From Patescibacteria group bacterium (GTDB lineage Bacteria > Bacillota > UBA4882 > JAAYXC01): a stretch of DNA of 64,000 nucleotides. Positions 2,558 through 26,686 of the stretch are shown one piece after another. Numbering within the stretch: the first letter of the stretch is position 1; every line of letters starts with the position of its first letter. The notes beneath the pieces were generated by a model, which worked only from the letters and a program-made list of their open reading frames with translations, did not search any database and was not told the origin of the DNA. The position numbers were made by a program, and so were the translations under genes. The stretch lies in the NCBI GenBank assembly GCA_050260175.1, contig JBLNBS010000053.1:9815-73814 (forward strand). The letters are read 5' to 3'.

Positions 2558-4153
2558 ATGGCAGATAACCCGATCTTGCGCCGCAACGAGGAACAGACCA
2601 ATCTGCTCCTGGCGCGCGTCATGCGCTATTGCATCGGCTTCTTCGTCCTGATACTGGTCGTGCGATTGCTGGGCTTTTTCAGCACTCCCATCGTCCAGTA
2701 TCTGGCTCCCTTTGGCGTGGCCAGCGTGCTGTTGGCCCTGCCGACCCTGCTCATCGCCCTGAATCGCACGGGGCCGTGGTTCAAGTACCTTATCGTCGCC
2801 GCCTGCCTCGCGGGGGTGACCGCTCTCTATATCAATTACTGGGAGATCGGCCGCTTCATCGAGTTCCTGTGGCTCTTTCCGGTCATCATCTCCTGCGCGT
2901 ACGTCACGCCAGAGCTGACGGGTTACGCCAGCCTGGCGGCGCTCGTGCTCATGGGCCTCTTGTATGCCCTGGCCATGCCCAACCGCCCGGTCAAATACAC
3001 GGAGTACGTCACCGTGCACAACCTGCTGGGCGACCTCATCTTCAGGGGCGTCAACCTCCTCGCCGTCACCGCGCCCCTCTTCGGCCTGACCATCCGTTTC
3101 CGCCGGGCCATGATCGATCTGGTCGGGGCGGAGGAACAGAACGCGATCCTTTCCCGCCTGGCAAAAATGATGGGTGAAACGACCAAGGCCGCCGGCGCGC
3201 TCGTTTCGACCGCCGGCCGCCTGAGCGGCTTGGCGGCCGTCTCAGAGCAGGTGGGTGTCAAGGCCGCGGAGGTCGGCGGGGGGCTGTCGCGCAACTCCGA
3301 CGAGAACTTGAACCAGATTCGCGAGGCTGTCCCCGTCATCGTCGGCATGGCGGAACAGATCCGCTCCCTGGCCGGCGAGGTCGGCGAAGTGGCGAGGGCC
3401 ACCGAGGAAATGGACCGCATCGGCCAGGCCGGCAAAGCGGCCTTGGCCCAAGCCGCCGGGCAGATGTCAATCATCGAGCGCGCTGCGGAGGAAAGCCGCG
3501 GCCTGCTGGCGAGCCTCAGCGAACAATCCATCGCCGTGGGCCAGATCGTCAAGGTCATCACGAATATCGCCCGGCAAACCAAGCTCCTGGCCCTTAACGC
3601 CTCGATCGAGGCGGCCCGCGCGGGCGAGGAGGGCCGCGGCTTCCAGATCGTCGCCCTCTCCGTCCGCGACCTGGCCACGCAGGCCACCCAGGCCGCCGAG
3701 AGCATCACCGCGCTGATCGCCGAGATCCAGGCGCAGACCGCCACCGCCGCATCCGCCGTCGAGCGGGGGGGTACGCAGGTGGCCGCGGGCCTTTCGGCCA
3801 TCGGCGAGGTTCACGAGGCGTTCACCCAATTCGCCGCCGCGGAGCAGGAAATACACGCGCATATCGCCGATATCGCCGGCACCCTGCAACGGTTGGCGCA
3901 GGGCAGCGACCTCGTCGTCGCCTCCGCCAACAACATTGAGGCCCGTAACACGGCGGGCGTGGCAGAAGCCCGGAACGCGGCCGCCGCCGTGGAGGATATG
4001 CTGGACAACCTGCACCGCATCCGCATGGAACTCGCGCAACTCCAGGAGACCGCCGCGGTTCTCCATGCCCTGGGCGGCAGCCCCGTTCCCCACCCGGCGG
4101 CGGAGACTGCGCCCGGCTTTACGCGGCCGGCGGCTGCTTCCCCCTCATTATAA
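2558..4153 (+). CDS. Methyl-accepting chemotaxis protein with a polytopic N-terminal membrane domain
   Basis: RBS GGGGAGGGGG then ATG at 2558. About 6 predicted TM helices at the N-terminus. The C-terminal MCP signalling domain includes the highly conserved segment [24 protein letters not shown]. Confidence 0.85.
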
Positions 4154-4249
4154 GAAGGGTATTTTGTTATGACAAGCTGAAACCTTTTACCATTTTTCCC
4201 CTGACAGGAAATGGACCATGGCCGCTGAAGCACTTCCCAACGAGAGGAT

Positions 4250-5560
4250 GTGCTGAATGCCATGGTCCGTTTGCTTGCCTGTCTGCTTTGCGTGCTGGCG
4301 ATCGCGGCCGCTGGGTGCGGGCCCGGGGTACCGGCCGCGGCAAGCGCGCGCGTGGAGGTGGACCTCGGCGCGATCGGGCGGGCCTTTGAACCCCGCCTGC
4401 GCGGGGTCATGGTGGGTTCATGGGAGAATCCGGCGTCGCTCTCGATCATGGCGGCGCATTGGCGCGATGCCGAGGTAACCTTTCTCGAATTCCCGGGAGG
4501 GCTGGAGGCGTCGGACGGGAGCTACGATTGGCAGGCGTCCCGGCCCTCGCAGATCGGCCCGGATCAATTCGCCGCCCTGGCAGACGCCGCCGGCGCCGCA
4601 GTGAGGATGTGCATCGCCGATTACGGCGCGAACGATCCGGCCAAAGCCGCGGCCTGGGTGGCGGCGAACCGCGAATGCGGCTGGGGTGCGGCCTACTGGG
4701 AGGTCGGCGACGAGGAATACGGCGCCTGGGCCGGCCACGCCGCTCCCGGAGAGTATGCCGCCCGTTTCCGCGCCTACCACCAGGCCATGAAAGCGGCGGA
4801 TCCCGCGATCAAGGTCGGGGCGCCGGTGACCGTCTATGATCCCTGGTGGACAAGGACCGTGTTGGCCTACATCGGCGATATCGTGGATTGGGTGGCACTC
4901 TCCTATTATCCCCAGGATCCCGGGGGGGAGAGCGACGCGGCCCTTCTCGCGGCCCCCGGCTGCCTGGGCGGGCTCATCGCCGATCTCCGCCAGTGGCTCG
5001 CCGAGGCCGCGCCCGGGCGTAAGGTGGAGATCATCATCACCGGCTGGGGCTCGGTCAGCTACAATCCCGGCCCGCAAACCCTTTCCGCAGTCAACGGGCT
5101 TTTTACGGCGGACGCCATCGGCGCCATGGCCGCGGCGGGAGTTGACGCGGCGGGGCTTTTTTGCTCGCAGATGGACGTCCTGTCCACGGGCGGCACATAC
5201 GGCCTCTTCGGCACCGGGGCGGATCCCGGCGCAGCGCGCCCGGCCTATTGGGGCCTCAAGGCTTGGGCCGGCGCCGCGGGAAACCTCGTCGCCTGCGCAA
5301 GCGACGCCCCTGAGCTTTCCTGCCGCGCCGTGGCCGGGGCGAACGGCATCCTGCTTGTGCTCATCAACCGGGATCCAGCGCGGCGCTTTACCGCCGATAT
5401 CGCGCTGGCCGGCTACGCGCCGCCGGCGGGGTGGATGACGGTTTCGCTCTACGGCCGGGACCAACCCGTTCTGGCCGAGACCGCCAGGAGGGCCCCGGCG
5501 GCGGAGTTTTGCCTGGATGTGCCTCCCCATACCCTGGCCGTGGTGCATATGCCGGGATGA
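4250..5560 (+). CDS. Lipoprotein, putative TIM-barrel glycoside-hydrolase-like enzyme; GH family uncertain. GTG at 4250 or ATG at 4262.
   Basis: Lipoprotein signal peptide (LAIAAAGCG) and a 436-aa Trp/Tyr/Gly-rich hydrolase-like body. Confidence 0.55.
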   Translation: MLNAMVRLLACLLCVLAIAAAGCGPGVPAAASARVEVDLGAIGRAFEPRLRGVMVGSWENPASLSIMAAHWRDAEVTFLEFPGGLEASDGSYDWQASRPSQIGPDQFAALADAAGAAVRMCIADYGANDPAKAAAWVAANRECGWGAAYWEVGDEEYGAWAGHAAPGEYAARFRAYHQAMKAADPAIKVGAPVTVYDPWWTRTVLAYIGDIVDWVALSYYPQDPGGESDAALLAAPGCLGGLIADLRQWLAEAAPGRKVEIIITGWGSVSYNPGPQTLSAVNGLFTADAIGAMAAAGVDAAGLFCSQMDVLSTGGTYGLFGTGADPGAARPAYWGLKAWAGAAGNLVACASDAPELSCRAVAGANGILLVLINRDPARRFTADIALAGYAPPAGWMTVSLYGRDQPVLAETARRAPAAEFCLDVPPHTLAVVHMPG

Positions 5561-5608: not shown

Positions 5609-6049
5609 TCAGACCAGGTACCAGACAACAAGCTTGGCAAGCCAACAGAGCGCGGAAGCCGCGGCCATCTGGGGCAGGTTCGCCTGCACGCGGACAGCGA
5701 CCGCCCGCCCGGCCAGCGTGGCGCCGAGCATGACCAGGGTGAGGCCGGCGAGATAGAGATAGAAGGGCGCGCCCAGTGGATGGGCGAGCAGGGCAGGGAG
5801 CAGGCGGCCGTGGGCCATCAGGCTAAAGCTCGTGGTCATGCCGCAGGTGGGGCAGGGCACGGAGGTCAGCGTATAGAGCAGGCAGGGCGGCAGCAGGAGC
5901 TGGGTGTGCGTGCCCACCAGGGCCGGCTCGGGGCGCAAAAAAAAGGGCGCCAGCGTAGCAAGCGCCCCGAGGGCCAGGACGGTAAGCTGATCGGTGGTCG
6001 GGCGCCGGCGCCCGGGTATGAAGACGAGCCTGCACGGCCACCATGTCAT
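5609..6049 (-). CDS. DUF2752-family small membrane protein
   Basis: ATG at 6049 with GGGAGG 8 nt upstream. The CPTCGMT motif resembles the CPxCGxTR signature I recall for DUF2752. Several TM segments. Confidence 0.55.
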   Translation of the reverse strand: MTWWPCRLVFIPGRRRPTTDQLTVLALGALATLAPFFLRPEPALVGTHTQLLLPPCLLYTLTSVPCPTCGMTTSFSLMAHGRLLPALLAHPLGAPFYLYLAGLTLVMLGATLAGRAVAVRVQANLPQMAAASALCWLAKLVVWYLV

Positions 6050-6090: not shown

Positions 6091-6687
6091 TCAGGCCTGC
6101 GCGGGTGTCGGCGGCGGCACGGCCCCGGCCGGCGCGGACAGCGTCCCGGTCATGTCCGCGTACAACACCGCCCCGGCCATCGTGGCGATGCTGGCCGTGA
6201 CGAGGACCCCGACGCAGCAGACGAGGATGCCCGAGATGCCGATCAAAAAGCTCAGGACGGAAAAGCCCAGGAATTTACCGTAATGCCTGCTGGCCGTCTG
6301 CCACGAGGCCGAGATGGCCTTGTCCCAGGAGAGGCCCCCGTCGATGACAAAAGCGTATGTAAGGACGAAGAACGGATAGAGAAAGAGCCCGGGCAGGAAG
6401 CAGAGGATGAAGGAGACACCCAGGATCAGGCTGACGATGAGCCCGGCCAGGAATGCGTCCACGAAACGGTCGAAACCGCGGAAGATGTCGCCGAACTCCG
6501 GCGCGGTGCCGCGCAGGGCCTTGAGCGTCACGAACATGATGCTGCACATCACCGGCCCGAGGAGCAGGCCCGATGCGGCGCTGGAGATCATGTTGACGAG
6601 GAAGACACCGAGGATGAAGACCAGAGGGTAGCGCCAGAGCAGATCCCAGGCCTTGCCGAAATAGGATCCGACGGTCATGAGAGACAT
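6091..6687 (-). CDS. Polytopic membrane protein (DUF975/YciC-like), upstream partner of the DUF2752 gene
   Basis: Start MSLMTVGSYFGKAWDLLW at ATG 6687; four or more TM helices. The tool's longer N-terminus (start 6723) is probably 5' leader. Sits 40 nt upstream of the DUF2752 gene on the same strand. Confidence 0.55.
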   Translation of the reverse strand: MSLMTVGSYFGKAWDLLWRYPLVFILGVFLVNMISSAASGLLLGPVMCSIMFVTLKALRGTAPEFGDIFRGFDRFVDAFLAGLIVSLILGVSFILCFLPGLFLYPFFVLTYAFVIDGGLSWDKAISASWQTASRHYGKFLGFSVLSFLIGISGILVCCVGVLVTASIATMAGAVLYADMTGTLSAPAGAVPPPTPAQA

Positions 6688-7027: not shown

Positions 7028-7057
7028 TTGACACGCGCGGCCGGCGCGTGCTAAAAT
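7028..7057 (+). promoter_or_regulatory. Sigma-70-type promoter for the tRNA-Ser genes
   Basis: TTGACA (7028-7033), 18-nt spacer, TAAAAT (7052-7057). Predicted transcription start about 11 nt before the tRNA 5' end. Confidence 0.5.
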
Positions 7058-7068
7058 GATTCTGCATC

Positions 7069-7156
7069 GGAGGGGTGTCCGAGCGGTTTAAGGAGACGGT
7101 CTTGAAAACCGTTAGGCTGCAAGGCCTCGTGGGTTCGAATCCCACCTCCTCCGCCA
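7069..7156 (+). tRNA. tRNA-Ser, anticodon TGA (UGA); CCA encoded
   Basis: GGAGGGG acceptor stem pairs with CCTCCTCC (one G-U pair). Anticodon loop CTTGAAA. Long variable arm. T arm GGGTTCGAATCCC. 3' CCA at 7154-7156. Confidence 0.85.
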
Positions 7157-7221
7157 AGGAGCCTGTGCGCGTAATGCCACGGACCACTAGATACAGTGGT
7201 ACCGCGTGGCACTTGATACCA

Positions 7222-7267
7222 GAGTTTGTGCTCCGGATGCCATTAATCAAGTTAGTCGCACAAACTC
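7222..7267 (+). other. Hairpin in the inter-tRNA spacer: GAGTTTGTGC, 26-nt loop, GCACAAACTC
   Basis: Perfect 10-bp inverted repeat. An additional hairpin at about 7186-7216 (GCCACGG ... CCACT AGATAC AGTGG ... CGTGGC). Confidence 0.4.
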
Positions 7268-7316
7268 CAGGGGAAAGAGTCAAAAAGTCGAAAAGTTATA
7301 AAGTCATGGTTTTTAC

Positions 7317-7408
7317 GGAGAGGTACCCAAGCCGGTCGAAGGGGACGGTTTGCTAAACCGTTAGTGGTCGTAAGGCCAGCGGGGGTTCGAATCCCCCCCT
7401 CTCCGCCA
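7317..7408 (+). tRNA. tRNA-Ser, anticodon GCT (GCU); CCA encoded
   Basis: GGAGAGG pairs perfectly with CCTCTCC. Anticodon loop TTGCTAA. Long variable arm. T arm GGGGGTTCGAATCCCCC. CCA at 7406-7408. Confidence 0.85.
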
Positions 7409-7416
7409 AAGATCAA

Positions 7417-7449
7417 CGGGGTGGTCAAGATGACCACCCCGTTTTTTTT
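7417..7449 (+). terminator. Rho-independent terminator after the tRNA pair
   Basis: CGGGGTGGTC, loop AAGAT, GACCACCCCG, followed by eight T residues. Confidence 0.75.
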
Positions 7450-7598
7450 CGATATCCTGGCGGCCGGCGCCCAATCGCGATCCTGGAGTGGGTCAAGGAC
7501 AAGGGAGCGCGAACGATGACGATACCCCTTCGTACGATTCAACTTTCTTGGCCCGAGTACAGCGGATGTAAATTGATCAACAAAAGCGCGCGGAATGG

Positions 7599-7607
7599 TG
7601 GTATAAT
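7599..7607 (+). promoter_or_regulatory. Extended -10 promoter element (TGgTATAAT) for the small HTH gene
   Basis: TGNTATAAT lies about 45 nt upstream of ATG 7652. The RBS GAAAGGTGG is 7 nt before the ATG. Confidence 0.4.
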
Positions 7608-7651
7608 ACCTGAAGAAGATCGTCTGTACTTTAAAGAAAGGTGGTATTCGG

Positions 7652-8077
7652 ATGCCAAGAGCGTACAGGACGGACCGGACCAAGTATGAAGGGGCGATTC
7701 GGGAGGCAAGAGTCAGCTACTTCAAGGATCTTTTGGCCCCCTATGTCAAGGAAGGTTATCTGGACACCAAGGCTCTGAAGGCCAAGAATCCAAAACTCTA
7801 CGAGGAATTCCGCATCGGCTTCAAGGGCATCAGGGCGGGATGCGCCGCTCTGAATCTCCCCACGTCCCAGGCGGCGATGCGGGCCAAGGTGGGCCCGGTG
7901 CGCAGGCAGATGAAGACGCTGGCCATCGCCTATATCGAGGAGAACGGCGCGGAGGCGGCGGCGGACAGAATGGGAACGAGCGTGGAACACGTACAGGAGC
8001 TGCTTACCGAGCTGAAAGCGCCGCCGAAACCCAGGACTTACAGGCGCAAGCCCGGAAGGCCGGCAAAGAAGAAGTAA
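7652..8077 (+). CDS. Small basic DNA-binding protein (HTH-like segment plus C-terminal AT-hook-like tail RRKPGRPAKKK)
   Basis: Strong RBS and its own promoter. GC is about 59%, lower than its neighbours. GRP core with a Lys/Arg tail. Confidence 0.6.
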   Translation: MPRAYRTDRTKYEGAIREARVSYFKDLLAPYVKEGYLDTKALKAKNPKLYEEFRIGFKGIRAGCAALNLPTSQAAMRAKVGPVRRQMKTLAIAYIEENGAEAAADRMGTSVEHVQELLTELKAPPKPRTYRRKPGRPAKKK

Positions 8078-8124
8078 ACAGGGCGGCGCGTCATCTACCT
8101 TCACATACCAAGACTCGAAAACCA

Positions 8125-8157
8125 GGAGGCACCTCACACCGGGGTGCCTCCGCTTTA
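8125..8157 (+). terminator. Stem-loop terminator after the HTH gene
   Basis: GGAGGCACC, 9-nt loop, GGTGCCTCC, then GCTTTA (weak U-tract). Confidence 0.4.
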
Positions 8158-8316
8158 TGAAATGGGCAATTTCAACGGTCGATTGGATACTGCCGGCGGA
8201 ATTTGGCTTGGCAAATCTGTGCAGGATTGCCAAAGAGCGGCGGCGAAGTATACCGCGCCCATTGCCAGGGTGGGCGAGTCTTTCGACGGAGCGGAGGACG
8301 GGGCGGGGTGGCCGTC

Positions 8317-9141
8317 ATGAATTGGCATCCCATGCGCGCGGGTGATCTTCTGGACGCGGCGTTTCGCGGCTACCGGCGGTTTTGGGGCCCCTCCCTGGCG
8401 GCGTACGGGTGTTTTTGCCTGCCCAGCGCTCTCGTCTCAGCGGGAGCTTCAGCCTTGGCGCAGGATGCGCGGGCCCCGTTCATAGTCCGGGTCGACCTCC
8501 TCCTGCTCGCCCTGGCGCTCACCCTTCTTTCCGCGCTCCCTCTTGCCTTGGCCGAGATCGTTTGCGCGCGCGCCGTATTGAACGCCGCCAGGGGCGAACC
8601 GGCCACGGCGGGAGCCGTCTTTGCCCGCCTGCGCGGGCACTGGTGGCGCCTTTTTACGGTCGCCCTGGCCAAGGACTTCCTGATCGGTTTGGGCCTCATG
8701 GCCTGCCTGGTGCCTGGGATCGTCCTGGCCGTCAATTACGCGGTGGCCGTACCGGCCGCGATGGACGAGAATCTGTGCGCGGGAGAGGCGCTGCGGCGCA
8801 GCCGCGCCCTGATCACGATCTCGTCCTCCAGGGGCAAGACATTATTGCTTCTCGTTCTCCTGAGCCTCATGGGTTACGTGGTTTCTCTAGCCATGAACGC
8901 CGCCATGGCGGGGGCTTCGGCCATCACCAGCGGCTTCGTAAATCTGAGCCCGGCAGTGCTTTTTACCGGGCCGGCAGGCCTCTGGCAGAACGCCCTGGCC
9001 GAGGCCGCAGACAGGCTCTTCATTCCCCTGGGCGGGCTTTTGTGGGCTTACTACTTTCTCGATCTCAAAGCGCGGCGGGAGGGCGCCGATCTCGTCATCA
9101 CCCTGGATGGATCCGCGGGCGGCGCCGGGGTGGGCCTATAG
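8317..9141 (+). CDS. Polytopic membrane protein (GPDPase-membrane-domain/DUF-like), paralog 1
   Basis: Start MNWHPMRAGDLLDAAFRGYRRFW. The tool's 38-aa N-terminal extension is likely leader. Six or more TM helices. The N-terminal motif (DAAFR-YRR) is shared with the next gene. Confidence 0.55.
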   Translation: MNWHPMRAGDLLDAAFRGYRRFWGPSLAAYGCFCLPSALVSAGASALAQDARAPFIVRVDLLLLALALTLLSALPLALAEIVCARAVLNAARGEPATAGAVFARLRGHWWRLFTVALAKDFLIGLGLMACLVPGIVLAVNYAVAVPAAMDENLCAGEALRRSRALITISSSRGKTLLLLVLLSLMGYVVSLAMNAAMAGASAITSGFVNLSPAVLFTGPAGLWQNALAEAADRLFIPLGGLLWAYYFLDLKARREGADLVITLDGSAGGAGVGL

Positions 9142-9171
9142 ATTGGTGATATCAGGCTCGTCGATAAAGGA

Positions 9172-10032
9172 GTGAACGGCGTGGCATATGAGTTCCGCCC
9201 CCGCGGCGTGGGCGAGATCGTGGACGCCGCCTTTAGAATCTATCGCAATCACTGGTGGACGCTGGTCAAGAGCGTGGGCGTCATCCTCCTTCCGCTCGGT
9301 TTCCTTCAGGCCGGGCTCCAGTCCCTGAGCCAGTACGCCCTCTTCCGCCTCGGCAACATGGGCGGGGACGCCAGTCCCGGCGCGGTCCTGGGCACCCTGG
9401 GCCTGACCCTCTTCGGCCAGGTGCCGGCCCTCCTCTTTGTCCTGGCCAACCTGGCCACCGAGGCCATCGTGACCAAGGAGGCCGCCATGGCCTGCCACGG
9501 CGAGGAGCCCACCCTCAACGCGGCCTGGGCCGCGGTCAAGGAGCGCCTGGGGCAGATCATCGGCGCCGGGCTCCTGTTTCTCATCATGACCGTACTCGGC
9601 TTCTGTTGCTGTTGTATCGGCGCGCCGGTGGTGATGGTCTTTTTCGCCCCCCTGACCGCCCTCATCCTGATCGAACGGGCCGGGGTCGGGCAGGCCATCC
9701 AGCGCAGCTTTAACCTGGTCAAGGCGGAGTTCTGGCGCGTGCTCGGCGTGATGCTCGTGCTCTTTCTGATCCTGGGCGTGGTGGGCGCGGCCCTCTGGCT
9801 CGTGGTCGGATTCGCGCTGGGTATGAGCGCCGGCAGGGATCTGCTCCGATTCATCTCGGCCATGAGCGGGGCGAATCCCCTGGTATATTTCCTCATCTCG
9901 TTTTTCACCACCATCTACAGTATCGTTCTAGCCCCGCTCTATCCCATCGGGCGGACGCTCATCTACTACGATCTGCGCGTGCGATTGGAGGGTTACGACC
10001 TCGAGCAAGCTACCGTCGGTACGGAATCCTGA
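9172..10032 (+). CDS. Polytopic membrane protein, paralog 2 of the preceding gene
   Basis: N-terminus EIVDAAFRIYRNHWW parallels GDLLDAAFRGYRRFW of the previous gene. Both end in a YYxxDL...EG motif. Confidence 0.6.
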   Translation: MNGVAYEFRPRGVGEIVDAAFRIYRNHWWTLVKSVGVILLPLGFLQAGLQSLSQYALFRLGNMGGDASPGAVLGTLGLTLFGQVPALLFVLANLATEAIVTKEAAMACHGEEPTLNAAWAAVKERLGQIIGAGLLFLIMTVLGFCCCCIGAPVVMVFFAPLTALILIERAGVGQAIQRSFNLVKAEFWRVLGVMLVLFLILGVVGAALWLVVGFALGMSAGRDLLRFISAMSGANPLVYFLISFFTTIYSIVLAPLYPIGRTLIYYDLRVRLEGYDLEQATVGTES

Positions 10033-10053
10033 TTCTGGGAGCTGTTTGCATAC

Positions 10054-11028
10054 TTGTACAGGGTCATGACGTTCATGGCCGCCCTTGCCCTGCTTTGGTG
10101 CCTCGGCGCCAGGCCGGCCGCGGCCGGCGACCGCGCCGCCGACTACCGGGCGTGGCTGGCCAGGGAGGAGCGGTTCGTCAGGCGGGCCGCGGACGCCTGC
10201 CGGCGGACGGGGGGCGCCTCCCTGGGGCCCCTGCGTCGGGCCGCGGCACTGGCCGCCTCGCCCGGGCCGGGGTTGTCACCCGAGGACACGGCCTGGCTCG
10301 CCAGGGACTGCGCCCGCATCCTGGAGGCCAAGCCGGCCGCGCGCCAAGGCATGCTCGCCGGCCTCATGGCCAGGATCGGGGCGTACCGGCGAGCCACGCT
10401 GATCCCGCCCCCGGGCGTCGATCCCGAGCGGGCACGGGCGGAACTGCGCCGCGTCTTTTCGCGGCCGGAGTTTGCCTGGCGCGTCCAGCGCCAGCCGTGG
10501 TGGCGCAAGCTGTGGCTGCGGATCATGGACCTGTTCAGGCGGTGGCTCAACGCCGTGTTCTCGGCTCCGGCGACCGGCAGGATCGTGGTGGCCGTGGCCG
10601 CCGTGGGCGCCGTGCTCCTTTTGGCCCTCGTTTTCCTCGCCATCCGGGGGCGGCCGCGCGGCACGGCCGAGACCGGCGCGGGGACGGACGCCGCGTCGCA
10701 GGCCGGCGGCCGGGGGGGGCGTAGGGAGGATCTGCGCCGCCGGGCCGAGGAGGCGGCCCGGGACGGGCGGTTCCGCGAGGCGGTGCGCCTGCTCTACGTG
10801 GCGCTCCTGCAGGAGCTGGACCGGATGGGCCTGATCAAGCTCGCCAAGGCCAAGACGAACTGGGACTACCGCCGCGAGATCGAGGCGGGCCACCGGCGGC
10901 TCTCCCCCGTCTTCCGGAGTTTTACGGATCTATACGAGCTCAAGTGGTACGGCCAGGACGACTGCCGGGCCGGCGACTACGAGCGCGCGCGCACACTCTT
11001 TGACGAGGCGAGGGGGGCGGCGCGGTGA
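10054..11028 (+). CDS. DUF4129 domain protein (transglutaminase-associated domain), N-terminal signal/TM
   Basis: The C-terminal region LLYVALLQELDRMGLIKLAKAKTNWDYRREIE...FTDLYELKWYG resembles DUF4129. The tool gives a TTG start. Confidence 0.65.
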   Translation: MYRVMTFMAALALLWCLGARPAAAGDRAADYRAWLAREERFVRRAADACRRTGGASLGPLRRAAALAASPGPGLSPEDTAWLARDCARILEAKPAARQGMLAGLMARIGAYRRATLIPPPGVDPERARAELRRVFSRPEFAWRVQRQPWWRKLWLRIMDLFRRWLNAVFSAPATGRIVVAVAAVGAVLLLALVFLAIRGRPRGTAETGAGTDAASQAGGRGGRREDLRRRAEEAARDGRFREAVRLLYVALLQELDRMGLIKLAKAKTNWDYRREIEAGHRRLSPVFRSFTDLYELKWYGQDDCRAGDYERARTLFDEARGAAR

Positions 11029-12191
11029 GCCGCAGGGGCGCGCTCTGGCTGATCCTCGTGGCCGTGCTGGCTATCGCCGCTTACGTGGCGCTCGCGCTGG
11101 GAACCAACCGCCGGAAGCCGGCCGCTCATTCCACCTACACCGCCGCGCCCAATGGCTGCAAGGCGGCCTACCTCTTCCTCGGCCACAGCGGGTTGCGGGT
11201 CAAAAGAAAAACGACCGCCTGGACAGAGCCGCCGCCCGCCGGGGGGCTCCTCGTGGTCACGGAACCCACGCGTGGTGTGACCTCGCGGGAAAGAATCGCC
11301 CTGCGCCGGTGGGTATTGAGCGGCGGCACAGTGCTAATCGCCGGCGCCAATCCCTGGGGCCTCTGGTCCGTGGGGGGCAAACCCGCCATCGGCGCCTCGA
11401 CGGTCGAGCCGTTCCGCCCCCTCGTACCGTGCGGCCTGACCGCGGGCGTGGAGCGCTTTCACATGGCCGCGCCGCTGCGCCGCGTGGGACCCTTCCGCGG
11501 CCTTACGCCGCCCGTGGCTTTGGCGGAGGACAGGTTCGGGGCCGCGCTCGTCCTGGCCGCATACGGACGGGGCCGGGTCGTCCTGGCGGCGGATCCCGCC
11601 TTCCTGACCAACGAGCGGCTGAAACTCCACCCGGATCACGCGCTCTTCCTGCTCAACCTGGCCAAGTCCAGCGGGGGAGGGCGGGTGGAATTCGACGAGT
11701 ACCACCTCGGTTTCGGCCGGGCGGCAAAAGCCGACGCGGCGCCGGCCGGCCTGCCGCCCATCATTTCGGCTGTCTGGTGGCAGCTGCTCCTCCTCGCGGC
11801 GGCCTATTTTTACATGACAGGCAGGCGGTTCGGCCGCCCGCTCGCCCTGCCGGAGACCGGGGGTCGCACGATCGCGGAGTACGTCAACTCCCTGGCCAAC
11901 CTCTACCTGCGCGTCCAGGCGGGCACGGCGGCCCTGGACCACCTCTACCACGGGCTCCTGGAGCGCCTCTACCTCCTGACCGGCCTCTCCGCGAGAACAG
12001 CCCCGGAGATCCTGGCCGGAGCGGCCGCGGCGCGCCTGGGCGCGGACGCGGAGGACCTGCGGGGGCTCCTCGCGCGGTGCCGGGCGGCCCTGGCCCGGGA
12101 ACGGATCGCCCCCGCCGAGCTCGCAGCCCTGGCAAAGCGCATCGACCACTACCGGAAGGAGCTTGAGAGATGGGTTACGTTGCCGAGCTAG
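11025..12191 (+). CDS. DUF4350 domain protein (N-terminal TM anchor)
   Basis: 4-nt ATGA overlap with the upstream gene. Characteristic position in MoxR/DUF58 clusters. Confidence 0.65.
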
Positions 12192-13120
12192 CCGCGGGTG
12201 TCCGCGCTGAGATGGCCAAGGTGATCGTGGGCCAGGACGAGGCGGTCGAGAGCCTCCTGATCGGCCTCCTGGCCGAGGGCCACCTCCTGCTGGAAGGCGT
12301 GCCCGGGGTGGCCAAGACGCTGATGGTCAAGGCCCTGGCCGGGATCGTCGGGGCGGATTTCAAGCGGGTGCAGTTCACGCCGGACCTGATGCCCGCCGAC
12401 GTCATCGGCACCAATATCTTCGACCTGCACGCCGGGGAGTTCCGCCTGCGCAAGGGGCCGATCTTTACCGACCTGTTGTTGGCGGACGAGATCAACCGGA
12501 CCCCGCCCAAGACCCAGGCGGCGCTCCTCGAGGCCATGGAGGAGCGGCAGGTGACCATCGACGGCGAACTGCATCCCCTGGGCGACCTTTTTACCGTCAT
12601 CGCCACGCAGAACCCCGTGGAGTACGAGGGCACCTATCCCCTGCCCGAGGCGGAGCTGGACCGGTTCATGTTCAAGGTGCTGATCCAATATCCCGGCGTG
12701 GAGGAGGAGGAAGACCTGCTCCGCCGCCACCAGCGCGGTTTTAGGCCCCGCGATCTCGCCACGGCGGGACTTGCGCGGATCGCGGATCGCGAGGCGATCG
12801 CTCGTTGCCGCGCGGAACTGCGCGCGGTGGTGGTGGAGGACGGCATCATCGGCTACCTCAACCAGATCGTGCGCACGACGCGGGCCTGGCCCCACGTAGC
12901 CCTCGGCGGCAGCCCTAGGGCCGCCGTCAACCTGCTCCTGGCGGCCAAGGGGGCGGCGGCCGTGGCCGGGCGGCAGTTCGTCGTCCCCGACGACGTGCAG
13001 CGCATGGCCTATCCCGTCCTGCGCCACCGGCTCATCCTGCGGCCCGAGGCCGAGATCGAGGGCCTGCGCGCGGACGACGCGATCAAGAGCATCATCGCAG
13101 AGATCAAAGTGCCGAGGTGA
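12170..13120 (+). CDS. MoxR-family AAA+ ATPase
   Basis: [33 protein letters not shown] (Walker A). Sensor and arginine regions are conserved. RBS AAGGAG. Confidence 0.9.
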
Positions 13121-14508
13121 CGGTCATGCCACCCCTGGCCCTGATCCTCGCCCCGGTCATCCTGGGCCTTGTCCTGCGCTCCCTTTTTACCTGGCGTTTC
13201 TTGGCCCTGGCCGGCCTGGGAGTGCCCTTTATCCTGCTCGGGGCCCGCGCGGGCCAGCCCCCCACCGCCCTGCTCCTGGCCTACGACGGCCTGCTCTTCT
13301 GCGCCTGCCTCCTGGATTATTTCCTCACTCCCCGGCCGCGCCGGTTCACCCTCACGCGCCGCGTGGACGGGGTGCTCTCGCTCGGCGAGCCCAACCGGGT
13401 GGCGGTGGAGGTGGAGTACCGCGCCGGCGCGCGCTCAGGATACCGGACCCGCCTCCTGGTCCGGGACGAGCCGCCGCCGGAGTTCGAGGCCGGGGACGGG
13501 GGCACGATGACGGCCGTGCTCGCCCCGGGCCGGACGGCGCTCCTCTCCTACACGGTGCGGCCGCCGCGGCGTGGGCTGCACCATTTCGGCCGCCTGCACC
13601 TGCGCTACCGCGGGCGGCTGGGCCTCATCGTCCGCCAGGCCCGCTACGAGGCGGCGGCCGCGGTCAAGGTCTACCCCGACGTGCTCATGGTGAAAAAGTT
13701 CGAGCTTTTGGCCCGGGCCGGCCGCCTGACCGCCATGGGCTTGAGAGCTGCCAGGCTGCGCGGCACGGGCACGAATTTCGAGAGCGTGCGGGAGTACGTG
13801 CCGGGCGACGAATACCGCTGGATCAACTGGAAGGCCACGGCCCGGCGCGGCCGGCCGCAGACCAACGAGTACCAGCTCGAGCAGGTGCAGAACGTCTTTC
13901 TGCTCTTTGACACCGGCAGGATGATGGTCACCCGGGCGCGCGGCATGGCCAGGCTGGACCACGCCATCAACGCCGGCCTCATGCTGGCCTACGTGGCGGC
14001 TGGCAAGGGCGACCGCGTGGGGGCCATGGCATTCGGCGAGGAGATCCTGGGCTACCTGGCGCCCGGCAAGGGCCGCGGCCAGGTGGCGCGCCTCACGGAG
14101 TTCCTCTACCCCCTGCAGGCGGAGATGGTCGAGTCCGACTACGCCAGGGCCTTCGCCCATTTTGCGGCCAAGAACCACAAGCGGGGCCTGGTCTGCGTCT
14201 TTACCGACCTCATCGACGAGGAGGTCTCAGGCCTGCTCCTGGCCCACATGGCCGCCCTGGCGCCGCGCCACATCCCCCTCTGCGTGGCGCTGCGCGACCC
14301 ATTGCTGGACGAGGCGGCGCGGGAGGAGATCGCCGAGGCCCGCACCATCTACACCAAGGCCGTGGCCGAGCAGGTCCTGGCCGACCGGGCACGGGCCAGG
14401 CGTTTTCTCGAGCGCCGCGGCGTGCTGGTCGTGGACGTGCCGCCCGAGGAGATGAGCGTGGCGGTGGTCAACAGGTATTTGGAGTTGAAGGAGCGGGGGA
14501 GGATCTAG
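13117..14508 (+). CDS. DUF58 protein (vWA-like partner of MoxR). Start GTG 13117 or ATG 13126.
   Basis: [42 protein letters not shown] is the DUF58 core. The 4-nt overlap with the MoxR gene indicates coupling. Confidence 0.85.
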
Positions 14509-23995: not shown

Positions 23996-26686
23996 CTACC
24001 TCCCCACCTGCTTCCGCAGATCGGCCAGGATCTGCTGCTGGCGCCTGATGGCGTCCTGCTGCGCCCGGATGCTCTGTTCGAGCTCCTCGAGCAGGCGGAC
24101 GAGCTGATCCCGGGTCAGGCCCTCCGTGACAGCCGCCTGGCCGGGGCCAGGACCGGCCGGCGTTGCCGGCGGCGCCGCCCCGGTAAGCTGCGCCAGGGCC
24201 TCCTGCAGGTTGCTGCCGTAGGCGATACTATTCTTGTAGACGAGGACCACGAGTTTCAGCTCGGGCTGCTGGCCCTGCTCGGAGACGATGTAGACCGGCT
24301 CCACGTAGAGAAAGTCCCCGGCAAAGGGCAGGACCAGGAGATTGCCGCGGATGACCGAGGACTGCTGCTGGCCCCAGAGCGTCATGAGCTTTGAGATCTC
24401 GGGGTTCTGGGCGATCCTGCCCTCCACCTGGATGGGGCCGTAGATGATGCGGTCCTTGGGCAGGAGATAGACCAGGACCTGTCCGTAGTTCTCCCCGTCA
24501 CAACGTGCCGCCATCCAGGCGATCATGTTCTTGCGCCTGGGCGCGCTGGGCTTAAGGGGTTCCATGAGCACGAACTCGGCGTCCGCCTCGCCCGGCAGGC
24601 GCAGCATGAGGTAGTAGGGAGCGAGTTCCTCCTCCTGGCCCATGTAGGTCTCGGTGGGCACGGCCCAGGCGTCCTCTTTTTGAAAGAACGTCTTGGTGTC
24701 CCGCATGTGGTAGAGGAGGAGCATGTCGCGCTGGATGGTGAAGAGCCGCTCGGGGTAGCGCAGGTGGTCCCGGATGCTCTGCGGCATCCTGTCCCCGGGT
24801 GTGAAGAGCCTGGGGAAGACGCGCTGCCAGACCCGGATGATCGGATCTTCCCGATCGACCACGTAAAAGGTGGCCGTGCCGTCGTAGGCGTCGACCACGG
24901 CCTTGACCGAGTTCCTGACATAATTGATCCCGGTCCCCGCGTGGCGGGCCGCGTAGGGGTAGTTGGCGCTGTAGGTGTAGGCGTCGATGAGCCAATAAAG
25001 CCGTCCGTCCGCCATCACGAGGTATGGATCGGGATCGTAGTCGAGAAAGGGGGCGAGCTTGCGGACGCGGTCGGCCACGCGGCGGTAGAGCTGCACCTTG
25101 CTCTCGGGCGTGATGTATTCGGAGAGGACGAATTTGAAATCCCCAAAACGCAGGGCAAAGAGCAGACGTACCCAGAACGAGTCAAGCGGCACGCCGTCCT
25201 TGCCGGTGTAATCCGTGGTGATGTTCTGTTCCGACTCTGTGGGGTAGTCGAACTCGTGCAGGGCGTTGGGGGCGATGGTGTACTCGTTCTGGATCTCGCC
25301 GAAATAAACCTGCGGGCGGGTGACGGGGGGGAGGCCGGTGCCCGGGGCCACGCGGGGCGGGATGTCGCTGACCAGAAAGACCGGCTGCCCCTCGGGATTG
25401 ACCTCGCTGACCCCGTTCAGGACCAGCCCGTAGCCGTGCGTGTAGGCGAGATGGAGATTCTCCCAGTTCTGCGCGTTCGCCTGCAGCTGGGACGTGTCCA
25501 GTTCCCTGGCGGCGAGCATGACCTCGCGCTTTTGGCCGCCGATGACGTAGCGGTCGATGTCCATGTCGTTAAAGGTGTAATACTGGCGCAGGGCCTGCAG
25601 TTGCTCGTAGGAGAGCTGCAGGGTCCGGAAATCCCAGAGCCGCATGTTGGTGATGGTGGGACTGTCCTGGCTGAGCGCTTCGGCGGTGCGGCCGAGCGGA
25701 TAATCCCTGGTCACAAAACGGTCGAGCCCGAACGCCTTGCGCGTCATCTCGATGTGCCGGGCGAGGTACGGCTTTTCCCTGATGTACCTGTTCGGCCCCA
25801 CGACCAGGGCGTTGACCACGCCCGGGGCGATGCTCCCCAGCACAAAGGAGGAGGCCAAAAGCAGCGCGACGCCGCCCAGGAGCAGTCTGGCGCCGCGGCG
25901 GAACAGCCCCACGCCAAGGACAGCCACGCACCCCGCGGCGATCCAGGAGAGGGCGGTATAGACCGGCAGGCGGACGTGGGCCGCCGTAAAGTCCACGCCG
26001 GTCACGAGCCCCGTCTCGGCGAGGAGCAGGCCCTGCCGCGCCAGGGCGTAGTCCCAGATCTTGGCGGCAAGGAGGAGGGCCGCCAGGATGGTGAGATGGA
26101 TCTTGGCCTGCGACCGGAGGATGAAAGTCCTGCCCTGGCGCCAGAAGGCCCGGGAAGCCCAGTAAACGAAGCCCGTGCCCAGGAGGGCCATCCAGAGCAG
26201 GGTTTGCAGCAGACGGTTGAGGCTCCGCCAGATCGGGAACTGGAAGAGATAGTAACTCACGTCGCGATGCAGGATCGGGTCGGCGACGCCCATGCGGACG
26301 GGATGCAGGAACTGCTGCACCGCAGCCCAGCCCGGGTTGAGCGCCGAACCGATCAGCAGGGCGAGGAGAGCGCTGACGGCGAGATTGGCCCAGCCCCAGG
26401 GGATCCTGTCAAGTTGCAACTGGCTCCAGACGCCGCCTTGCTCCTCCGCGGGGTGCGGGCCTCTCAGTGCCCGCAGCGCCAGGCTGAAATTGAGGAAGAA
26501 GAAGGTAAAGGTTACGGCCCACGCCAGGAGCCGCAGGATCCAGCCGGTGGCGAAGGCCGTCCAGAAGACCGCGGTCAAACCCATGCTCCGGAACCAGAGC
26601 CAGTCCGTGAAGAAACTCGTCCCGGCCATCAGGAGCACGAGGACCAGCACCGCCAGTCCGACCGCGAGCCAGATTACCTTGCGCAT
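23996..26686 (-). CDS. UPF0182-family large membrane protein
   Basis: 896 aa. N-terminal multi-TM region with a TDWLWF motif, followed by a large extracytoplasmic domain. Confidence 0.8.
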   Translation of the reverse strand: MRKVIWLAVGLAVLVLVLLMAGTSFFTDWLWFRSMGLTAVFWTAFATGWILRLLAWAVTFTFFFLNFSLALRALRGPHPAEEQGGVWSQLQLDRIPWGWANLAVSALLALLIGSALNPGWAAVQQFLHPVRMGVADPILHRDVSYYLFQFPIWRSLNRLLQTLLWMALLGTGFVYWASRAFWRQGRTFILRSQAKIHLTILAALLLAAKIWDYALARQGLLLAETGLVTGVDFTAAHVRLPVYTALSWIAAGCVAVLGVGLFRRGARLLLGGVALLLASSFVLGSIAPGVVNALVVGPNRYIREKPYLARHIEMTRKAFGLDRFVTRDYPLGRTAEALSQDSPTITNMRLWDFRTLQLSYEQLQALRQYYTFNDMDIDRYVIGGQKREVMLAARELDTSQLQANAQNWENLHLAYTHGYGLVLNGVSEVNPEGQPVFLVSDIPPRVAPGTGLPPVTRPQVYFGEIQNEYTIAPNALHEFDYPTESEQNITTDYTGKDGVPLDSFWVRLLFALRFGDFKFVLSEYITPESKVQLYRRVADRVRKLAPFLDYDPDPYLVMADGRLYWLIDAYTYSANYPYAARHAGTGINYVRNSVKAVVDAYDGTATFYVVDREDPIIRVWQRVFPRLFTPGDRMPQSIRDHLRYPERLFTIQRDMLLLYHMRDTKTFFQKEDAWAVPTETYMGQEEELAPYYLMLRLPGEADAEFVLMEPLKPSAPRRKNMIAWMAARCDGENYGQVLVYLLPKDRIIYGPIQVEGRIAQNPEISKLMTLWGQQQSSVIRGNLLVLPFAGDFLYVEPVYIVSEQGQQPELKLVVLVYKNSIAYGSNLQEALAQLTGAAPPATPAGPGPGQAAVTEGLTRDQLVRLLEELEQSIRAQQDAIRRQQQILADLRKQVGR

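Follow-up and report, generated by a model that had tools for sequence, protein, structure and literature searches.

Phages capture genes for host nucleoid proteins, for example Lsr2, HU and IHF. Lsr2 genes occur in actinobacteriophages (PMC8612146, PMC7074111), CgpS of Corynebacterium glutamicum is a prophage-encoded xenogeneic silencer of the Lsr2 type (PMC5137423), and temperate phages carry morons, extra genes that are transcribed independently (PMC6469090). Here, we describe a small gene that encodes a basic protein of 141 aa with predicted DNA-binding parts and lies shortly behind two tandem tRNA-Ser genes in a 64,000-nt stretch of DNA (the window; positions 9,815 to 73,814, forward strand, of contig JBLNBS010000053.1 in assembly GCA_050260175.1, labelled Patescibacteria group bacterium). 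The locus consists of two independent transcription units, the tRNA operon and the small-gene cassette (Table 1). In the reading that we favour, and to which we give an even chance, the small unit is a phage-related, self-contained cassette encoding a DNA-binding protein, which was delivered to tRNA-proximal sites long ago and has since been retained by the host.

The preliminary description of this DNA had reported a basic 141-aa open reading frame (ORF) with its own TGgTATAAT promoter, and both are present. A terminator belonging to the gene had also been proposed; the hairpin is there (z -4.8) and its T tract is weak, and we regard it as a probable terminator. Loci L001, L009, L010 and L021 have a terminator in common to which it shows no homology (homologous and comparison loci are given L numbers throughout). 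Read together, the extended -10 promoter, a strong ribosome-binding site, the ORF and the hairpin would make up a self-contained cassette. Nucleotide alignment of the homologous loci delimits the same unit, a conserved block made of about 100 nt of promoter and 5' untranslated region, the coding sequence and a terminator, beyond which the flanks are unrelated. Pairwise Nei-Gojobori estimates give ratios of nonsynonymous to synonymous divergence (dN/dS) of 0.05-0.19, with synonymous divergence (dS) running from 0.4 to above 3; the low dN/dS together with the high dS indicates that the gene is old in these lineages and strongly constrained. Promoter and ribosome-binding site are near-invariant although synonymous sites are saturated, the -10 boxes of L019 and L013 being less exact versions of the TGnTATAAT layout. 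A further motif, AAATTGATCAACAA, stands about 20 nt upstream of the extended -10 and at homologous positions in L001, L003, L009, L010 and L018; it is kept as A(A/G)AT(T/A/C)G(G/A)T(C/T)AACA in the six loci despite dS above 1, and could serve as an autoregulatory operator or represent a -35 element at poor spacing.

The protein family to which the small gene belongs is unannotated and extremely rare. A single-sequence search of 5.8 billion protein clusters returned 8 proteins and a profile search of the same collection about 15 clusters, while the profile found 6 credible matches among 1.84 billion representatives (8 with E ≤ 0.001, two of which are repetitive proteins of 737 and 796 aa matched in many short stretches). 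Scans of genome and metagenome collections added only L013 and L018. Searched against Pfam, NCBIfam, PHROG and PADLOC, the 141-aa protein and all 14 family members gave nothing above threshold, and the window holds no second copy of the gene.

All of the distant homologues, at 35-41% identity and with profile E values of 1e-44 to 1e-53, lie in phage-like contigs. On the 48.6-kb contig of L014/L015, genes for portal, large terminase and PAPS reductase are followed by a lone homologue on the opposite strand, beyond which come metallophosphoesterase, sigma factor, RuvC, MerR and ParA genes; L016 likewise has portal and large terminase genes and then the homologue on the opposite strand. In L017 the homologue is the outermost gene of a group with an excisionase-like helix-turn-helix (HTH) gene, a cI-type repressor and a tyrosine integrase (PHROG 1, E 2e-73). 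Each phage copy has its own sigma-70-type promoter and intrinsic terminator (TGATATAAT in L016 and L017), the promoter in L014 being the canonical TTGCAT-17-TATAAT, and tRNA genes are absent from these contexts. The phage homologues are the most divergent members of the family and occur in low-GC phages of different hosts. Two familiar identities were tried for them and rejected. The orientation opposite to the large terminase and the possession of a separate terminator speak against a small terminase subunit, and L017 already has another, excisionase-like HTH gene, which speaks against an excisionase there.

Members of the close clade (70-82% identical to the window protein) are single chromosomal genes and, with L013 included, occupy eight independent contexts. 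The window gene begins 243 nt after tRNA-Ser(GCU), the L001 homologue 294 nt after a tRNA-Glu/Val/Asp/Phe cluster, and the L003 homologue (L012 is the same contig) 320 nt after tRNA-Thr. L009, L018 and L021 have a divergent AlkZ-like gene and no tRNA upstream, the homologues of L010 and L011 have no tRNA nearby, and that of L013 (57% identity, in a Bacillota metagenome-assembled genome, MAG) lies among six tRNA genes, of which the nearest is about 900 nt away on the opposite strand. Only 236 nt of upstream sequence are available for L019 and L020, and the flanks of L026 are too short to judge. A same-strand tRNA gene within 350 nt upstream is found in 3 of about 6 informative contexts, against a rough expectation of about 1% for a random gene (our own estimate, from about 25-30 tRNA loci per about 3000 genes). 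Short Logan contigs carrying the window, L001 and L003 genes mostly break within or just past the upstream tRNA. Downstream neighbours of the close homologues differ in every case. In the window the neighbours are chromosomal, among them a methyl-accepting chemotaxis protein (MCP), DUF2752, UPF0259-like, DUF4129, DUF4350, MoxR and DUF58 genes, and six of them form an operon right after the small gene (8308-14508: UPF0259-like, GPDPase_memb-like membrane protein, DUF4129, DUF4350, MoxR AAA+ ATPase, DUF58). The gene order of this operon is kept in L022 (48-77% protein identity), where it follows EamA and HAD genes with neither a tRNA nor the small gene; the comparison thus puts a synteny break exactly at the boundary between small gene and operon.

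One locus carries what looks like the trace of an insertion. In L003 (GCA_050260415.1, JBLNCE010000204.1), a 53-nt imperfect direct repeat of about 79% identity (5685-5737 and 6473-6522) is formed by the hairpin of the tRNA-Thr terminator and by another copy of that hairpin beyond the gene, the two bracketing a cassette of about 790 bp. The alignment score of 38 compares with a shuffle maximum of 27 (0 of 300 shuffles reach it), and the pair looks like an insertion scar or an att-like pair. The same flanking-repeat test was negative in the window, L001, L009, L010 and L013 (one positive locus in six); in the window, a local alignment of the two flanks does no better than chance, 236 of 300 shuffles equalling or exceeding its score. 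L010 (3780-3966) and L011 (2730-2960) are identical through gene and terminator and diverge completely about 25 nt past the T run, a pattern that marks a structural breakpoint where the cassette ends on its 3' side or else a chimeric assembly.

Taken at face value, such edges could belong to a miniature mobile unit of about 0.8 kb that lacks an integrase and is inserted downstream of tRNA genes, at the terminator, by a phage integrase acting in trans. The conserved block ending exactly at promoter and terminator, the three different tRNAs 243-320 nt upstream of the start codon, the tRNA-Thr terminator repeat around the L003 unit and the separation of L010 from L011 at the 3' edge would all follow. 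That flanking repeats occur in just one of the six loci tested, that the loci have no conserved terminal sequences in common, that each contig has one copy and that dS above 1 between copies speaks against recent movement leave this account highly improbable in our judgement. A bolder version, in which the roughly 0.8-kb cassette is an integrase-less mobile unit shared by temperate phages and high-GC Bacillota chromosomes and set shortly behind tRNA genes, with the tRNA terminator as its attachment site and an AT-hook-plus-HTH nucleoid protein or silencer of a new type as its product, also seems unlikely to us; if it were true, the host would keep the product, for example, for repressing incoming AT-rich or phage DNA.

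In the main rival explanation, the gene would encode a lineage-specific, vertically inherited host nucleoid-associated protein (also suggested in the preliminary description) or global regulator, abundant and basic and with an HTH and an AT-hook-like tail, the phage copies being captured host genes. Its varied neighbourhoods and its proximity to tRNA genes would then reflect either long divergence with rearrangement at tRNA loci or a tendency to lie in highly expressed regions. Conservation of promoter, ribosome-binding site and terminator at the nucleotide level despite dS above 1, very low dN/dS, a single copy in the window, a GC content at third codon positions (GC3) inside the host range, the chromosomal contexts of all close members and the absence of the family from sequenced phages and IMG/VR fit this explanation. 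It accounts less readily for a neighbourhood that differs from lineage to lineage while the adjacent MoxR-type operon keeps its synteny, for same-strand tRNA genes directly upstream at well above the estimated frequency, for the flanking direct repeat in L003, and for phage homologues that are the most divergent of all and sit in low-GC phages of different hosts. We consider it possible, if on the unlikely side.

Composition says little about origin. The preliminary description had contrasted a GC content of about 59% in the small gene with a background of about 68%; the gene is indeed lower (0.60), and the background is 0.66 in the window rather than 0.68. Its GC3 of 0.77 lies at about the 10th percentile, about 1.4 standard deviations (sd) under the mean of 45 putative genes (0.84, sd 0.05). 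The deficit falls mainly on codon positions 1 and 2 because the protein is rich in Lys, Arg and Ala (16 Lys, 15 Arg and 20 Ala; pI 10.1), and low GC is therefore weak evidence of foreign origin here. Low GC as a sign of recent transfer was rejected on the same grounds, GC3 being no clear outlier and the deficit lying mainly in positions 1 and 2.

These data also bear on the suggestion, made in the preliminary description, that the gene is the regulator left behind by a decayed integrated element. As a recent, decaying remnant of an element integrated at tRNA-Ser(GCU), with no function in the host, it would explain why the gene lies directly downstream of the tRNA, why GC is lower around it and why a homologue stands beside an integrase in L017. 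However, dN/dS is about 0.06-0.19 in comparisons with eight homologues at dS above 1, which points to long-term function and largely refutes a recent remnant; the tRNA 3' end and the terminator are not duplicated, integrase fragments and phage genes are missing, and the GC deficit is mostly one of codon positions 1 and 2. We give a recent remnant very little chance. What survives of the mobile-element proposal comes from comparison with other loci only (homologues in phage contigs, three tRNA-adjacent lineages, the L003 repeats); for a recent decayed element at this site there is no att sequence, integrase or phage gene, GC3 is no clear outlier and selection is strong.

The protein itself appears built to bind DNA. 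AlphaFold models, confident in their secondary structure (pLDDT 79.7 and 83.4), have seven helices and a disordered basic tail, and the last two helices (residues 100-107 and 111-122) form a putative HTH. A sequence search of the PDB gave only an HTH-motif match, of residues 97-120 to a designed HTH repeat; one family member matches Sigma70_r4 weakly (E 0.0056), and the weak fold matches that recur are to sigma region 4, Fis and LuxR-type HTH proteins, none of them significant. Lsr2, H-NS, MvaT and Rok gave no Pfam or NCBIfam match and are not among the fold matches. The basic protein with an HTH and the tail RRKPGRPAKKK, as drawn in the preliminary description, is sound in its anatomy, with the HTH a prediction. 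As to the AT-hook proposed there, the disordered, low-pLDDT tail PPKPRTYRRKPGRPAKKK contains a GRP core, in the form PGRP rather than the canonical RGRP, and the Pfam AT_hook model does not match the protein, so the tail is best called AT-hook-like rather than a canonical AT-hook. From this architecture we infer DNA binding in which the HTH would contact the major groove and the basic tail the minor groove of AT-rich DNA; the protein may act as a transcriptional regulator or silencer. That it acts on RNA or tRNA instead, with a functional meaning to the tRNA proximity, would agree with its basic character and the recurrence of tRNA genes nearby; the identity of the tRNA differs each time, half of the loci and all of the phage contexts have no tRNA, and the HTH signature and GRP tail point to DNA, and we hold this to be extremely improbable.

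A phage-related cassette, delivered long ago and retained, has a number of findings to contend with. In the window, no ORF at 7409-8308 or nearby encodes an integrase or a fragment of one, no phage genes lie within 20 kb of the small gene, no second copy of the tRNA 3' end exists at up to 3 mismatches, and no duplication of the tRNA terminator or other att-like duplication was found at the locus. The statement in the preliminary description that no integrase or att-like duplicated tRNA 3' end is visible is thereby confirmed within the window, and the search for such a duplicate downstream as an attR, which it had proposed, yielded none. The family was not found in 50,697 INPHARED phages, in PLSDB plasmids (tblastn) or in IMG/VR (scans), and the link to phages therefore rests on three metagenomic contigs at 35-41% identity. 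Adjacency to a tRNA gene, in 3 of about six informative contexts, comes from a small sample, the GC3 of the gene falls short of the window mean by only about 1.4 sd, and the GRP core is not invariant in the family, becoming GKP, GRR, RGRK or GRKR in relatives. Loss of synteny, at dS above 1, could by itself account for the differing neighbourhoods, and transfer between phage and host may have run in either direction; phages are known to capture host nucleoid-protein genes. All of these weigh against the cassette that we favour. If it is right, the gene would have reached tRNA-proximal sites long ago aboard integrating phage-like elements and would then have been domesticated while the rest of each element vanished or moved off.

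Table 1. Features of the tRNA-Ser operon and the small-gene cassette, in window coordinates.
Feature	Position	Strand	Details and support
tRNA-operon promoter, sigma-70-type, TTGACA-18-TAAAAT	7028-7057	+	11/12 positions match; TG precedes -10
tRNA-Ser(UGA), CCA encoded, 88 nt	7069-7156	+	ARAGORN; Rfam RF00005, 55.8 bits
Inter-tRNA spacer, 160 nt	7157-7316	+	between the two tRNA-Ser genes
Spacer hairpin A	7176-7210	+	z -4.0
Spacer hairpin B, perfect 10-bp stem, 26-nt loop	7222-7267	+	z -3.0
tRNA-Ser(GCU), CCA encoded, 92 nt	7317-7408	+	ARAGORN; Rfam RF00005, 58.5 bits
Intrinsic terminator, tRNA operon	7415-7449 (stem 7415-7443)	+	13-bp stem, 3-nt loop, T8
Conserved upstream motif AAATTGATCAACAA; inner TTGATCAA palindromic	7570-7583	+	alignment of six loci
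Extended -10 promoter TGGTATAAT	7599-7607	+	sequence; TGnTATAAT invariant in aligned close-clade loci
Shine-Dalgarno AAAGGTGGT	7637-7645	+	6 nt ahead of ATG; GAAAGG(T/C)GGTA invariant in alignment
Small gene, 141-aa basic all-helical protein	7652-8077	+	ORF
Hairpin 3' of small gene, 11-bp stem, then GCTTTATG	8125-8151	+	fold -22.9 kcal/mol, z -4.8

The tRNA-Ser pair is an ordinary two-gene operon. The tandem tRNA-Ser(UGA) and tRNA-Ser(GCU) genes of the preliminary description were recovered by both ARAGORN and Rfam (each passing the RF00005 gathering score of 29, with serine anticodons and long variable arms), and its TTGACA-18-TAAAAT promoter and terminator were supported by promoter scan (3 promoter-like sites in the region, 0.7 expected) and by folding (-24.5 kcal/mol, z -6.0). 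A gathering-score search of the whole window against Rfam gave these two tRNAs and nothing else. The promoter scan detected no internal promoter for the second tRNA. A sigma-70-type promoter would thus produce a single precursor of tRNA-Ser(UGA), the 160-nt spacer and tRNA-Ser(GCU), which the strong intrinsic terminator would close. Elsewhere in the window, ARAGORN called a tRNA-Lys(ttt) at 24826-24905 on the reverse strand (80 nt, anticodon position 39), with no Rfam support at the gathering score; the call sits within an 896-aa UPF0182 gene (23996-26686, Pfam E 3e-267, GC3 0.88) and is almost certainly a false positive.

The spacer between the two tRNAs has more structure than expected by chance. 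The perfect 10-bp inverted repeat with a 26-nt loop that had been described in it is present (arms GAGTTTGTGC at 7222-7231 and GCACAAACTC at 7258-7267), and the second hairpin described there exists as well, adjoining the first and not nested inside it. Among 5000 dinucleotide shuffles of the spacer, 0.12% contain a perfect inverted repeat of at least 10 bp whose loop is no longer than 40 nt, and about 13 comparable repeats occur across the window. The entire spacer folds at a z of just -1.4, and its 5' 114 nt (7157-7270) at -3.9 against shuffles, a value that, like those of the other spacer parts, is somewhat flattering because the sub-windows were picked after the fold had been seen. The final 47 nt (7270-7316) are A-rich and without structure. 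The 3' arm GCACAAACTCC (7258-7268) pairs alternatively with 7221-7231 or 7158-7169, the similar upstream segments GGAGCCTGTGCG and GGAGTTTGTGC competing for it in two mutually exclusive folds. Searched against Rfam at E up to 10, the spacer matched no family of its own, the matches being the tRNAs and sub-threshold ones that overlap them. A metagenome scan for the tRNA-Ser(UGA) 3' end, 140-170 nt and the tRNA-Ser(GCU) 5' end gave 0 matches, and the spacer matched neither plasmids nor the fetched loci. Hairpins A and B, in the 5' two-thirds, may be processing or stability elements of the tRNA precursor.

Some features of the comparison loci are recorded here in their own right. L001 contains about 1.05 kb of non-coding DNA (3908-4961) with 42-nt terminal inverted repeats that are 83% complementary and with inner inverted repeats, including a perfect 21-bp palindrome (4427-4469); it lies about 340 nt upstream of the tRNA cluster and looks like a miniature inverted-repeat transposable element (MITE) or a non-autonomous insertion element. 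On the 8.7-kb contig of L013, which carries six tRNA genes, an apparently frameshifted ABC-transporter gene (3170-4300, reverse strand, 3' of the homologue; judged by eye from overlapping ORFs) leaves fragments between the small gene and a tRNA-Leu. The MAG labels 'Patescibacteria group bacterium' and 'Bacteroidota bacterium' fit poorly with a GC content of 66%, a chemotaxis receptor gene and CCA-encoding tRNAs; among the relatives, L022 carries SpoIIM and L013 is labelled Bacillota. Both labels seem mistaken, and a high-GC group within Bacillota is the probable lineage.

The tRNA operon is routine, and the small gene is a well-delimited candidate that amounts to a modest finding, one that would not strongly surprise a specialist. 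Its family is strongly conserved and links temperate phages of low-GC Firmicutes with the chromosomes of uncultured high-GC Bacillota-like bacteria. If its product proves to be nucleoid-associated or a silencer, the few DNA-organising proteins of Gram-positive bacteria would gain a new family that is shared with phages, and if the placement beside tRNA genes stems from insertion, the gene would illustrate delivery to tRNA loci in a minimal form.

Among known systems, the spacer may be compared with the E. coli 3'ETS-leuZ sponge, a spacer-derived RNA from a tRNA precursor; both are stably folding segments of such a precursor, and the spacer here differs in matching no Rfam family. Like integrative elements that target tRNA genes, the window gene lies directly downstream of a tRNA gene, the L017 homologue stands beside a tyrosine integrase and the L003 gene is flanked by direct repeats; unlike them, the window lacks an integrase and a duplicated tRNA 3' end and carries a single gene as cargo, and the L003 repeat is of the tRNA terminator rather than of the tRNA 3' end. 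The unit resembles phage morons in being self-contained, with a promoter, a single gene and an intrinsic terminator as judged by consensus matches, a layout that also appears to hold in L001, L003, L014, L016 and L017. The resemblance extends to position, the homologues in L014 and L016 being lone opposite-strand genes between early or regulatory genes and the packaging module, and that in L017 the outermost gene of a repressor-integrase module; it differs in that neither the window copy nor its close relatives lie within a prophage and in that PHROG has no match to the family. A long helix followed by a C-terminal HTH, as predicted for this protein, is also the arrangement in Fis, sigma-70 region 4 and LuxR-type HTH proteins. 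Lsr2-type silencers are likewise small, basic proteins of high-GC Gram-positive bacteria whose N-terminal part is helical and whose C-terminal part binds DNA (a prediction here) and includes a GR-containing AT-hook-like motif, and their family too is common to host chromosomes and phages. No sequence or fold similarity of the protein to Lsr2, H-NS, MvaT or Rok was detected, and its own DNA-binding part is a predicted HTH. Because no homology was detected, the resemblance is in kind only, and in that sense prophage-encoded Lsr2-type silencers such as CgpS would be the closest functional analogy to this small, tRNA-proximal gene.

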